Positions 632 through 55,680 of a stretch of 64,000 bases of DNA are shown here, piece after piece (positions within the stretch are counted from its first letter, which is position 1; each line of letters opens with the position of its first letter). The DNA is from Octopus vulgaris. Lineage: Eukaryota. Location: NCBI GenBank assembly GCA_951406725.2, contig OX597817.1:144956001-145020000 (forward strand), given 5' to 3'. The notes beneath the pieces were generated by a model, which was not told where the DNA came from, did not search any database, and was given only the letters and a program-made list of their open reading frames with translations. The position numbers were made by a program, and so were the translations under genes.

Positions 632-1216
632 TGTCAGGTCATTCTTGAGCATTACTGGTGACATGTAACCCAGTATGACCTGTCGCATGGTCGGGTCGTC
701 GGTGACTAAACTGGCAACTCCATCAAGCTTGCTTGGTGAGGAGGGTGATTGTTGGACACCCTGCGGGATGGAAAATAAGACCCATCAAAGGGCGGAAGAA
801 CCAATGTGTAGTCAACGGCCAATTCAACAAGTATCTTGATGCGGTGAAGTGCCTGTGTGCTCCATTGACCCGGAGAGCTATGCTGGAGGGAGAGAAATCT
901 CCAGACAGGTCTTACTAGACTAGAGAGGTTGAAGGGTAAAAGACCGACAAAACCTTAATGACAATAAATCAAAGCATTGGCAACAGGGCATGGATTTAGT
1001 TATCGGTAGGACCTAACAGATCAGATTCCTGGCTTTGAACTAGCAGGACGTCCTACAGAGGATCTTGAATAGAAGACAATGGATGAGACCCTAATATTCC
1101 TAGTTAGATGGAAACTGTGGGACCACATGGAGAAGTGCCCTGTGATTCCTATACTATGCACAACCGAAACCCCTAAAAGGGGCATCCTATGGAACGACCT
1201 AGATGAGATGAGATTG
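632..1216 (+). mobile_element. Non-coding retroposon, probably an internally deleted or non-autonomous RTE-clade derivative
   Basis: GC-richer island bounded by a near-perfect TSD (agaagtttttga 620-631 / agaagttttga 1217-1227). Ends in a (GATGA)n tail. Structured 5' region with hairpins agggtg/caccct (742-762) and gatgg/ccatc (767-786). No credible ORF. Confidence 0.65.
637..714 (+). ncRNA. Candidate HDV-like self-cleaving ribozyme (degenerate copy)
   Basis: Element order fits the HDV fold: P1 ggtcat(637-642)/atggtc(687-692), P2 ccagt(670-674)/actgg(710-714), P3 atg/cgc (imperfect) around L3 acctgt, gg(693-694) for P1.1 with L3 cc, short P4, J4/2 ctaa (706-709). It sits at the 5' end of the retroposon. 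Confidence 0.45.
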
Positions 1217-3009: not shown

Positions 3010-3189
3010 CTAACCCAGTTAGCAAATTATATTTATTTCACACGTATATATAAAGATATAAATGATGGAGAAATATTATGCAGATTACCTGAATCTGTAT
3101 ATTGTGACACATACAAACATACACATATATATATTATATATATATATAAGAAAGAAAGATGCATACACAAACACATATATGACTGTGTC

Positions 3190-3537
3190 TGTGCATAGAG
3201 CATCGTCATCAAAATACAGGACCAGATGCTGCAACACCTTGGGCTTCAAGGGCCCACAGCTCTTTAATATCCTTCCAAAATGCCTGAGAGACCAGCATGG
3301 TGTGGATGTAAGTGTCTTTAAAACAAAACTGAATCTCTTCCTGTCAAGGGTTCCAGATGAGCCCACCTCACAGCAGGAAATGCAGATGAAGGCAGTAGCA
3401 TCTAACTCCCTCATTGACCAAATGCCACATATCAGAGGAGGTTTTAAATAATGGTGTAGCTCAGTCAACGGTGGTGCCCCAGCATGACCGCAGCTTTGAA
3501 GCTGAAACATTTTTAAATAGTTTAAATAGTTTAAATA
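3190..3537 (+). mobile_element. 5'-truncated LINE (CR1/L2-group-like): ORF2 C-terminus and 3' UTR
   Basis: Peptide ...NTLGFKGPQLFNILPKCLRDQHGVDVSVFKTKLNLFLSRVPDEP...ASNSLIDQ is typical of CR1-type ORF2 ends. Stop at 3449-3451, short UTR with a hairpin, tail of tttaaatag repeats. Confidence 0.75.
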
Positions 3538-15527: not shown

Positions 15528-16086
15528 CGAGGGTGAGTCAAAAAGTAATGCCATTTTGTTTAGGACATGTGTAATTACCAACACAGGAACATGTATCATC
15601 AAAAGGAAGCTGGTCCTCTGTGGATCACATCCCTACTTTTCAACATAGTCACCATTTCTCTCAATAGCAATGTTCCACCTTCAAATGAGAGCATGTATCC
15701 CTGCCCTGTAAAATTCTGTTGATTGTTCTTTGAGCCACTTCTTCACTACTGTTTTCACTTCCTCAGTGGAATAATATAGCACCTTCAGATTATCATCTGT
15801 TCGGCCCCATGAAAGAGGGTTTGAGAGGCAAACATTATTCCAGTGACGAGGAAATGAAAACTGTAGTGAAGAAGTGGCTCAAAGAACAGTCAACAGAAAT
15901 TTACGGGGCAGGGATACATACACTCATTCGAAAGTGGAACATTGCTATTGAGAGAAACGGTGACTGTTGAGAAGTAGGGATGTGATTCGCAGAGGACCAG
16001 CTTCATTTTGATGTATGATACATGTTCCTGTGCTCGTAATTATATCTGTCCTAAACAAAATGGCATTACTTTTTGACTCACCCTCG
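15528..16086 (+). mobile_element. Palindromic mariner-derived non-autonomous transposon with transposase C-terminal remnant
   Basis: TA TSD (15526-27 / 16087-88); ends cgagggtgagtcaaaaagtaatgcc / ggcattactttttgactcaccctcg; ~250-bp inverted arms. From 15776 the + frame reads IAPSDYHLFGPMKEGLRGKHYSSDEEMKTVVKKWLKEQSTEIYGAGIHTLIRKWNIAIERNGD (mariner APSDYHLF motif). Confidence 0.9.
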
Positions 16087-18245: not shown

Positions 18246-18496
18246 ATATATACACACATGCGTGCACATGCATGTGTGTGTGTCATCTTTATTCACATTG
18301 TTGCAATTTTTTAAAAGTAAATTCCCTTGGGGTCACAGTGACCATAGCACTTTTGCAGGCTCTTCCAGACAATTGACATTCAAGTCCAGCTGAATAATGA
18401 TACCAGTAGAAACACAACCCATCTAGCAGTTTTCTGCTCCTTATTATCCTAAGGGTTCATATGTATATGTGTGTGTGTGTTTCTATATATATATAT

Positions 18497-19821
18497 ATCT
18501 CCCACCCACGTTGCCGCACTTGCCCTTACCTCTCCAACACCACCCGCCTCACTAGCACCCACCATCGACCCTATCCCATCATCCACTCCTTCACCTGCAC
18601 CTCCAGCAATATTATCTATTGCATCTCTTGCTCTCTCTGCAATTCCTTGTACATTGGACAAACGGGACGCCGCTTGGCTGACCGGTTCGCGGAACACCTT
18701 CGTGACATCCACCTTGCGAATGACACACCGGTCTCACGCCATTTCCGCTCCACCGGTCACTCCTTGCAACACCTATCTGGGTTCGGTTTGTCCTTACACA
18801 GAGGCCATCCGGATTCCCGTTTGCGCCGTGAACAGGAATTAATCTTCTCTCTTCGCTCTTATACGCCATTTGGTCTCAACTCTCCCCCCTCCTCATCTAA
18901 CCCCCTCTCCCCCTCCTCACCTATCCTTTCCCCCCGACCCCTACTTCTTCAGTCCTTCATCCTTTCACCCCTACTCCCCTTCCCTTCTTCCCTCTTTCTC
19001 CCTCCCTCTTCCCCTTCCCTCTGCTCCCTCACTCCCTCTCTCTCCCCCCTCTCCCTCTTTCCTCCTTCATCCCTCTCCTCCCCCATCCTCTCTTCTTCCC
19101 CCTCCCCTTCTCTCCCCCCTCTTCTCCCCCTCTTCTCCTCACTACACCACATGACTTTACACATCACATCACATATGATGTGCCATACTAATACACACAC
19201 CAACTAATACATACTAATACGTACTAATACATACTAGTACATACTAATACATACACCAACCCTATACATACACACGTCCAGACCCCGCATACGCACTTAT
19301 ACTCTCTCATACACACACACACACACTTATACATACCAATACGTACTAATACATACTAATACATACTAATACATACACCAACCCCATACATACGCACGTC
19401 CAGACCAATCCTACGCACTAATACTCTCTCATACACACACACACACACACACACACCCTTATACATACTAATACATACTAATACATACACACATCCAGAC
19501 CGCTCCTACGCACTATTAGCTGGTCCCTCAACCCTTTTATCAACCCTATTATCTCCCCTTATTTCGCTCTCGCGTCTCATGTTTGATTTTTGACCTCTGG
19601 CCGAAATCAGATCGCCATGTTGATTCGTTAGCTACTGCACGCATTTTTTTCTCTCCTTCTTTCTGTGTTTTTCTCTCTCTGTGTATCTTTCTGTTGAAGA
19701 GCGTAGGCTCGAAACGTTAAAGACTTGTTTTATTTATATTTCCTGAGCGCCATACTAATACAATTGTTCGTTTGTTTTCCACCTGCCTTCGTCTTTTGTT
19801 TATTTTCATAAAGCTTCCCGT
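18497..19821 (+). mobile_element. 5'-truncated Penelope-like element: GIY-YIG endonuclease domain, low-complexity spacer and pLTR
   Basis: 18497-18880 reads CRTCP...FTCTSSNIIYCISCSLCNSLYIGQTGRRLADRFAEH...PVSRHF...H...RLRREQELIFSLRSYTPFGLN, the PLE GIY-YIG with an upstream CxxC (Neptune-like). Followed by a pyrimidine tract, atacatacta minisatellite and hammerhead-bearing terminus. (TA)n on both sides. Confidence 0.9.
19686..19723 (+). ncRNA. Minimal type I hammerhead-like motif (non-canonical core)
   Basis: tcttt-CTGTTGA-a-gagc gtag gctc-GAAACGTT-aaaga: stem I tcttt/aaaga, stem II gagc/gctc, palindromic stem III (aacgtt), as in PLE minimal hammerheads. Core A6 is U. Confidence 0.65.
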
Positions 19822-23578: not shown

Positions 23579-23661
23579 TCATGATACAGAAACTACCGAT
23601 TGGATTGACCCTCGGCTCTCACATTTACACAAGTCACAAACAGAAGACTATAGTGATGATG
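23579..23661 (+). CDS. MAGI: Internal coding exon: C-terminal half of a WW domain plus the linker to a second WW domain, MAGI-like (membrane-associated guanylate kinase, inverted)
   Basis: Polypyrimidine tract and acceptor (tttttcattatttcttatcag, AG at 23577-23578), donor G|gtaagt at 23662. Translation [..t] H D T E T T D W I D P R L S H L H K S Q T E D Y S D D [g..] matches the WW signature H-x-T-x-T-T-x-W-x-D-P-R, followed by an acidic linker like MAGI WW1-WW2 (HNTKTTSWLDPRL...EEC.EDE|LPYGW). Phase 2 start, phase 1 end. Orthology comes from recalled family similarity, not a search. Confidence 0.8.
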
Positions 23662-54490: not shown

Positions 54491-54752
54491 TAAACAGAAA
54501 CAATTCCTATCATAGTAGGTGCATTAGGTATGATAAAAAAAATATTCAGACAAATACATAACAAAAACATCAGGACTTACAAATATATATAAAATACAGA
54601 AAATAGTACTACTGGGCACTGCACACATCCTATTTAAAACACTTTCAATACAGTAACAATCAGTGCATCCCAGCAAAGTACAGCACATACCCAAGGCACA
54701 CAGAGCTGCGCTCAGTAGTGAAGTGAAAGCACGATATAAAAATAAAACTACT
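54491..54752 (+). mobile_element. R4/Dong-clade LINE 3' end in (AAT)n
   Basis: Same family as 38628-38962 (acagaaacaattcctatcatagtaggtgcattagg...gtgaaagcacg...aaaactactg); aataataat on both flanks. Confidence 0.85.
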
Positions 54753-54764
54753 GAATAATAATAA

Positions 54765-55680
54765 TGTCAGTGTACTTACTCGACAGAGTGTTAGTTCCTT
54801 GAGAGAAATGTTGTACCTAAGAAGCATCAGTTGTGGTGTGCAAGAGAGACGATTGCGCTGGTATGGTCATGTGGTGAGAATGGATGAAGATAGGTGTGTG
54901 AGAAAGTGCCAATCCCTAGCAGTTGAGGGAACCCGTGGAAGAGGTAGACCCAGGAAAACCTGGGACGAGGTGGTGAAGTACGACCTTCGAACGTTAGGTC
55001 TCACCATGGAAATGACTAGAGACCGAGACCTATGGAAGTATGCTGTGCGTGAGAAGACCCGGCAAGACTAGTGAAGCCATAACCCGTGGCCCCTACCTGG
55101 GACGTAGTCAGTCCACCTGTGCATACCTTCCTTCTTGTGACACTTGTGAAGACCTGTTGAGGCAAGTGAAAATCAAATCAAATCAAATCAAACCAAATCA
55201 AAATAGATGAACATCAATGGAATTTGTATCCTTGTGGTACCAGTGCCGGTGGCACATAAGAAAACCATCCGAACGTGGCCGTAGCCAGTACCGCATCGAC
55301 TGGCGTCCGTGCTGTGGGCACGTAACAAACACCATCCGATCGTGGCTGTTCGCCAGCCTCGTCTGGCACCTGTGTCGGTGGCACATAAAAAACACCATCC
55401 GAGCGTGGCCGTCTGCCAGCCTCGTCTGGCACCTGTGTCGGTGGCACAAAAAAAACACCATCCGAGCATGGCCGTCTGCCAGCTTCGTCTGGCACTTGTG
55501 TCGGTGGCACATAAAATCACCCACTACACTCTCGGAGTGGTTAGCGTTAGGAAGGGCATCCAGCTGTAGAAACACTGCCAGATCTGACTGGCCTGGTGCA
55601 GCCTTCGGGCTTGCCAGACCCCAGTTGAACCGTCCAACCCATGCTAGCATGGAAAGCGGACGTTAAACGATGATGATGAT
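54765..55680 (+). mobile_element. 5'-truncated RTE-clade LINE: ORF C-terminus and long 3' UTR with tandem repeats
   Basis: 54799-55071 VQERRLRWYGHVVRMDEDRCVRKCQSLAVEGTRGRGRPRKTWDEVVKYDL...DRDLWK is a canonical RTE end. UTR has (aaatc)n, about 4.5 units of ~62 bp, the family B domain and a (GAT)n tail. Confidence 0.9.

Follow-up and report, generated by a model that had tools for sequence, protein, structure and literature searches.

How does a short, non-coding retroposon fix the 5' end of its own RNA? The question is raised by an insertion at positions 632-1216 of the window, by which we mean the whole stretch of 64,000 nucleotides of Octopus vulgaris DNA analyzed here (contig OX597817.1, positions 144,956,001 to 145,020,000); the coordinates of the element and its parts refer to the + strand. 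A sequence-only reading of this DNA had described a non-coding insertion with a TSD and a (GATGA)n tail, and this is borne out by the sequence. The 585-bp element is bounded on both sides by the TSD AGAAGTTTT(T)GA, with a one-T difference between the 5' copy (620-631, AGAAGTTTTTGA) and the 3' copy (1217-1227), ends in a short (GATGA)n microsatellite tail (~1201-1216) and is overlapped by four stop-to-stop frames of 70-82 aa but by no long one. The 5' TSD copy has a second possible reading, in which the TSD is the 9-nt AGAAGTTTT and a 4-nt leader comes after it.

Repeat comparison showed that the insertion is a copy of a non-autonomous, RTE-derived retroposon family, here called family A; its derivation from RTEs, also part of the earlier reading, is supported by a 5' end that autonomous RTEs have in common with it. 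Family A has a high copy number, with 2,041 first-look candidates in the 2.8-Gb genome, 40 of which were scored (84-100% identity). Thirty copies differ from the consensus by 5-13%, and the window copy, at 7.9%, is a decayed member and probably dead. The 3' part of the element (957-1200) carries predicted terminal hairpins and is presumed to be the recognition site for the reverse transcriptase of an autonomous partner.

A WW-type exon at ~23579-23661 (+), with AG/GT ends and best PDB matches to YAP1/MAGI2 (E 0.015-0.02), appears to belong to a MAGI-like host gene, and a guanylate-kinase exon (E 0.002) lies ~95 kb upstream on the + strand. Because both exons are on this strand, the data suggest that the element lies in the sense orientation in an intron of a MAGI-like gene, in agreement with the orientation given previously. 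Elsewhere on the + strand of the window we noted, by eye, an open frame resembling the end of a Penelope-type GIY-YIG endonuclease (18410-19207) and fragments resembling the C-termini of a mariner transposase (15734-15970) and of a CR1-type LINE (3062-3451). A very high-copy short repeat directly follows the element (~1320-1760, +) and recurs many times in the window; in contigs from public runs its read depth far exceeds that of the 5' head of the element.

The sequence-only reading had answered the question of the 5' end with an HDV-type self-cleaving ribozyme at 637-714. The strings that it named (ggtcat/atggtc, ccagt/actgg and ctaa) are indeed present in the window copy, but the HDV fold that they would form is not kept in the family. 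A641 with T642, in the proposed P1, and T676 with G677, in P3, are each found in just one of 34 full-length copies, that of the window, and the family consensus does not restore the pairing of either helix; in contigs from four public runs, C676 and A677 account for 90-100% of the depth. An HDV ribozyme at the 5' end of an element has a 7-bp P1 that starts at the cleavage site, but the 5' ends of copies do not cluster near 637: among 62 distinct copies that retain their 3' end, a sample biased toward the best-scoring ones, 34 start at 632-634 and two at 636-637. We therefore reject the HDV ribozyme at 637-714, since the consensus lacks P1 and P3 and the 5' ends gather at 632-634. When the window copy was folded by itself, no significant stability was seen (z -1.0 to -1.4). 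Several other candidates were set aside by eye: no twister P4/L4 motif was seen in the head, compared with a table in PMC8501958, no tRNA-type A or B boxes were seen, and other HDV registers, hammerhead, pistol and twister-sister gave no fit.

Comparison with RTE families showed that the first ~190 nt of the element (632-821) form a head common to a second short family, family B, and to five autonomous RTE families (RTE-a to RTE-e); it was also found on RTEs from marine metagenomes. In these elements the head stands before ORFs encoding APE (PF03372) and RT (PF00078) domains, one of the autonomous families having intact 1,123-aa ORFs, and from the look of the protein we take them to be RTE/BovB-like. 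The heads are 84-92% identical between families, against 58-65% for the APE proteins, and the remaining UTRs can hardly be aligned. Diverged heads were present in four of 80 metagenome RTE loci (L256, L243, L281 and L225; the best 80 of 349), and a covariance model recovered the whole fold described below in three metagenome RTE loci.

Family B is bipartite: its 5' and 3' ends both match RTE-b. It is ~555 bp long, has a (TATG)n tail, inserts into TATG microsatellites and looks like a younger derivative of RTE-b (copies L064, L068, L070-L072 and others; partner L204, L206, L208 and L209). At one locus, L311, 5' pieces of the family B head are arrayed in tandem and end in repeated CCCAGTACAA units, which suggests slippage of the reverse transcriptase inside the fold. 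For family A, the search for an autonomous RTE sharing both ends, as proposed in that reading, gave matches at the 5' end only: RTE-a to RTE-e share the head alone with family A and have no 3' match. In searches that scored top candidates only, a junction pattern for the partner gave 0 matches, a 3' query returned family A copies exclusively among the 30 loci listed, and the top 30 PF14529 loci belonged to an unrelated two-ORF LINE. The window also holds 3' fragments (54727-55071, +; ~1930-2140, -) of an RTE-type family that has a (GAT)n tail and is very abundant, with 50,518 candidates in the genome; the head was missing from eight long copies of this family.

What the head contains became apparent when the families were compared. 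Its first 57 nt (633-689) are predicted to form a three-way junction closed by pseudoknots, a layout that we take to be that of a flavivirus subclass 1a exoribonuclease-resistant RNA (xrRNA), the fold with which flaviviruses block RNA-degrading enzymes. RNAs of this subclass form a ring around the 5' end and resist XRN1 independently of protein. The predicted parts are P1 (635-639/678-682), a variable P2 (640-651), a single C as J2/3 (C652), P3 with an A-U second pair (653-658/670-675), a first pseudoknot, PK1, in which G633 pairs with C676, a U634 placed to meet A654-U674 in a triple, and a second pseudoknot, PK2, between 662-665 and 686-689. The fold was derived by comparing families and only then checked against the published features of subclass 1a, as defined in sections of PMC12081666, PMC8571300 and PMC13161572. 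The family A and family B consensuses, RTE-a, RTE-c and L256 show every sequence feature of the subclass, for which PK1 has 1-3 bp and PK2 has 2-8 bp.

Individual features vary among heads. The bases of the U-A-U triple, which as such is invisible in sequence, are kept in 10 of 10 heads for U634 and in 9 of 10 for A654-U674. G633-C676 is found in 8 of 10 and never covaries; it is a G-U pair in the window copy and is missing in L231. The junction C occurs in 30 of 34 family A copies and in family B, RTE-a, -b, -c and -d, L256, L231 and L225. Its place is taken by U in the other four family A copies, the window copy among them, and in both autonomous RTE-e copies seen, the latter accompanied by a long PK2. 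PK2 spans 4 bp in families A and B and RTE-a, 5 in L256 and 6-7 in RTE-c and RTE-e; in most heads it is the palindrome CAUG/CAUG, and it covaries in L231 alone, where the distinct sequence GUUA/UAAC is found. All seven core features are kept in 12 of 34 family A copies. The window copy carries G641A, C642T, G651A, C652T, A660G, C676T and A677G and does not satisfy a descriptor of the fold. L231 lacks only PK1; L225 and two tested RTE-d copies fail the descriptor, apparently through decay.

Compensatory changes support P2 and P3. Across 10 heads, 95.6% of cells were paired, with seven two-sided pairs, all in P2 and P3, and 0-1 of 500 shuffles did as well; with PK2 included, eight heads again gave 95.6%, and 0-1 of 500 shuffles were as high. 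These counts are not probabilities, and the test is inflated, because related sequences defined the structure. For P1 and the 5' G and U the support is conservation only, since neither ever covaries. Freed of all sequence constraints, the descriptor matched twice (L256 and L231) in 75 kb of sequence lying upstream of the metagenome RTE ORFs, and gave no antisense match and none in 88 kb of ORF. Both matches carry CAGGT/ACCTG and the single junction C, and L231, whose P2, P3 and PK2 sequences differ, has almost no other sequence in common with the heads. The 15 matches of the descriptor across 560 kb of RTE loci all lay at heads; 508 kb of viral DNA yielded none, nor did the window.

Searches beyond RTEs returned little. 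The xrRNA structure was present in 0 of 120 sequence-motif matches from viral contigs, searches by pattern or protein found no head homologues in viral contigs or prokaryote genomes, and the covariance model, run over 81 sources, recovered its four seed sequences and nothing else. Among the 4,227 Rfam families, the top match of two intact heads was Flavivirus_SLIV, both for L088 (23.0 bits, E 0.029) and for L231 (22.3 bits, E 0.049), with identical junction lengths. Both scores fall far short of the gathering cut-off of RF01415 (54.5 bits), and no relevant Rfam match came from three further queries, the window, L195 and L256; these searches were small and were run after the xrRNA idea had arisen. 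As far as sequence comparison goes, the head agrees with an xrRNA in every test except the Rfam cut-off.

Could the head nevertheless be a self-cleaving ribozyme, either with HDV 637-714 as an alternative conformer or of a new class cutting near 632? Some of its features recall the HDV ribozymes of sister RTEs. The GACTAAAC at 704-711, assigned to J4/2 in the sequence-only reading, is near-invariant, with C706 kept in 32 of 34 full-length copies, and C706 and CTAAAC resemble J4/2 of the sister ribozymes, as CAT-GG at 686-690 resembles their P1'-GG junction. A P2-like pairing is mostly retained (92.5% of cells on eight heads, one two-sided change), although most RTE-a and RTE-b copies have an A-C mismatch there; its 5' strand overlaps P3 of the xrRNA-like fold. 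The core of the ribozyme is what fails. P3 and L3 are missing (46% of P3 cells paired on eight heads, the first pair in 0 of 8, with a loop of 6 nt where an HDV ribozyme has a 3-bp P3 around an L3 of 7-8 nt), and the complete HDV pairing proposed earlier reaches 81% of cells on eight family representatives, a value reached in 161 of 500 shuffles. None of 70 heads of the family A type matched an HDV descriptor, which does detect canonical ribozymes in sister RTEs (8-9 of 60 loci); the 5' ends are not at 637, and L231 and L225 lack the whole downstream part. We consider a ribozyme the least probable of the three alternatives weighed here, and a remote one.

Behind the xrRNA-like fold, the head continues into a structured module of predicted hairpins (689-786), which show two-sided changes and are also found in L256 and L243. 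This module could be what is left of an HDV ribozyme's 3' half, or else a small pseudoknot. In L225, a structured module of ~180 nt that follows the xrRNA-like fold is tandemly duplicated (2540-2900). The region bears on another explanation, in which the head acts as an internal promoter for RNA polymerase II, with an initiator-like TCAG at its start and downstream elements at 689-790, the fold being secondary. Precise 5' ends and strong sequence conservation across families would fit a promoter, and LINE-derived promoter heads common to several families are described in a section of PMC4758252. Fixed spacing, however, is broken by P2, which ranges from ~10 to 23 nt, while two-sided changes keep the pairing, and L231 and L225 retain the fold in front of unrelated downstream sequence. 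A promoter therefore seems to us very unlikely, if a little less so than a ribozyme.

The xrRNA-like fold begins at the element boundary, and we think it likely, judging from the comparisons above, that these first 57 nt, as a match to subclass 1a xrRNAs, define and protect the RNA's 5' end. The element would be transcribed within host transcripts, for example in introns, as suggested by the position of this copy and by what parts of PMC6765202 report of RTEs. After splicing, decapping or cleavage, a 5'-3' exonuclease (XRN2/XRN1) would degrade the host-derived RNA and is predicted to stall a few nucleotides before G633. In target-primed reverse transcription, an RTE reverse transcriptase would then start at the 3' tail of this trimmed RNA and copy it, yielding copies that begin at 632-634, where starts are observed to cluster. 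The head would in this way do the job held by the HDV ribozyme in sister RTEs. Of the self-excision from host transcripts proposed earlier, the exit itself is probably allowed by the predicted structured 5' end, but the ribozyme route is not upheld.

Class 1 xrRNAs halt the enzyme 2-4 nt before PK1, according to sections of PMC12081666 and PMC13161572, which predicts short donor-derived leaders between target and element. Among 17 usable TSD calls made with an ungapped finder on 34 copies, 11 showed 2-4 extra nt, compared to 15-21% in simulations (binomial p 1e-4). Inspection by eye found unambiguous non-target leaders of 3-4 nt in 4 of the 17, the others being possible indels or mismatches; one 9-nt call was wrong. 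The leaders do not track subfamilies (best p 0.009 among 155 tests). They lend weak support to exonuclease stalling, and untemplated additions would look alike. Of the 34 full-length copies of family A, 26 have a T four bases before G633 (window position 629), the next base being variable; this T could reflect a target preference or an inherited leader.

Position bears on a further alternative, that the fold is a binding site for the RTE protein (in second-strand synthesis or packaging) or a translation element, its likeness to an xrRNA being convergent. R2 proteins bind a 5' pseudoknot, as stated in parts of PMC12222951 and PMC6765202, and non-autonomous derivatives keep the head. This explanation accounts neither for the junction C, the A-U second pair of P3, the 5' GU and the junctions of 0, 1 and 2 nt, nor for a fold placed flush with the 5' end. 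We regard it as unlikely, though less so than a promoter; binding and an xrRNA role are, moreover, not mutually exclusive.

If the head serves as an xrRNA, it would share its place with true HDV ribozymes. Of 60 sister RTE loci, the HDV descriptor detected canonical ones in 8, or in 9 once P1.1 was unconstrained, and none antisense; several of these begin right at a flanking microsatellite, that is, at the element boundary. In L223 (~2660-2820) and L228 (~160-300) we noted, by eye, HDV-like layouts whose L3 holds an extra hairpin (a loop of 26-28 nt), which the standard descriptor missed. On a tree of APE proteins, xrRNA-type and HDV-type heads are intermixed, so that 4-5 changes of head are needed; a single clade for six xrRNA-type elements was rejected (AU p 0.005), and RTE-c groups with the HDV-headed L220 and L215 (support 99/98). 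The HDV labels for L215, L223, L228, L268, L270 and L277 were assigned by eye or by protein identity, and the trees draw on one 221-column domain with many weak forks, 33 of 86 proteins in one and 17 in the other, L201 and L184 being left out as their matches were too short. From the tree we infer that the head has been exchanged between RTE lineages.

Family A itself may record such an exchange. Behind the head, at 819-956, lies what homology to the exact 5' end of the RTE L264 identifies as a remnant of an HDV-like ribozyme: nt 203-321 of family A match that end at 74% over 121 nt (E 7e-18). In the family consensus P3 and L3 survive, P2 is lost and P1 is imperfect; the window copy has decayed further. 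L264 is an intact RTE with a 1,182-aa ORF that begins with an HDV-like ribozyme (121-266) in which the two bases of P1.1 have changed places, with G in L3 and C after P1, and P4 is ~100 nt long. None of the 62 family A copies starts at the internal remnant. An active internal ribozyme would remove the head, as argued in a passage of PMC5786205, and replacement of the head with loss of the ribozyme is for this reason the simplest reading. Family A would have been born when the head was placed before an HDV-type 5' end that later became inactive, an order of events that we deduce from the arrangement.

A 2021 review (PMC8374639) states that xrRNAs had been characterized in viruses only and names cases in eukaryotic genomes as an open goal. 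Among the best-ranked literature matches (engineering papers, reviews and surveys of transposable elements, with subscription journals largely outside) we found no natural xrRNA in a retrotransposon, and passages of two papers on octopus and mollusc repeats (PMC13282606 and PMC4758252) describe no such head; the families may be catalogued, or the fold noted, already. On balance, and by a narrow judgment drawn from sequence, we favor the view that these would be the first cellular, non-viral xrRNAs, RTEs across marine animals using, as an interchangeable alternative to the HDV ribozyme, a flavivirus-type block by which host XRN enzymes would carve the element's RNA out of host transcripts. The reverse transcriptase may have picked up the module by jumping onto a flaviviral subgenomic RNA as template, or the viral fold may itself stem from the module. 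The heads offer natural xrRNA candidates in thousands of genomic copies. If their role is as proposed, non-LTR elements would have a third way to set their 5' end, besides internal promoters and self-cleaving ribozymes; the sharp 5' ends of some ribozyme-less RTEs would be explained, and the question would arise whether flaviviruses and retrotransposons have exchanged RNA modules. The heads would also be natural 5'-protecting modules for retrotransposon-based gene insertion, for which 5' stability of the template is thought to be limiting, according to parts of PMC11331408 and PMC12222951.

Among known elements, family A resembles the bipartite non-autonomous RTEs Bov-A, RTESINE and WALLSI3, as portrayed in part of PMC5786205, in being ORF-less, with an RTE 5' end, a microsatellite 3' tail and no tRNA head; unlike them, it joins two different RTE 5' modules. 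The Twister T-variants of Perere-3 (PMC8501958) are likewise RTE-type elements with a different 5' RNA module, although the twister is catalytic and has a P4/L4 motif that the head lacks. With the HDV-like ribozymes at the 5' ends of RTE, R2 and L1Tc elements, reported in parts of PMC6765202 and PMC5786205, the head shares its position and the proposed release from a co-transcript; it has no HDV P3/L3/P1.1 core, and a host exonuclease would produce its end, whereas theirs is made by self-cleavage. From the flavivirus xrRNA of subclass 1a (RF01415; ZIKV, MVE, WNV), which resides in the viral 3' UTR, the head differs in sitting at a retrotransposon 5' terminus, in a last P1 pair that is U-A, in a P3 plus L3 of 23 nt versus 16 in the RF01415 consensus and in an Rfam score below the cut-off. 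In both, a three-way junction, predicted in the head, combines a 5-bp P1 with a variable P2, a single C between P2 and P3, a 2-nt linker, the 5' G-C pair, bases suited to a U-A-U triple, a loop pseudoknot of 4-7 bp, structure directly downstream and a GUCAGG...CCUG core.
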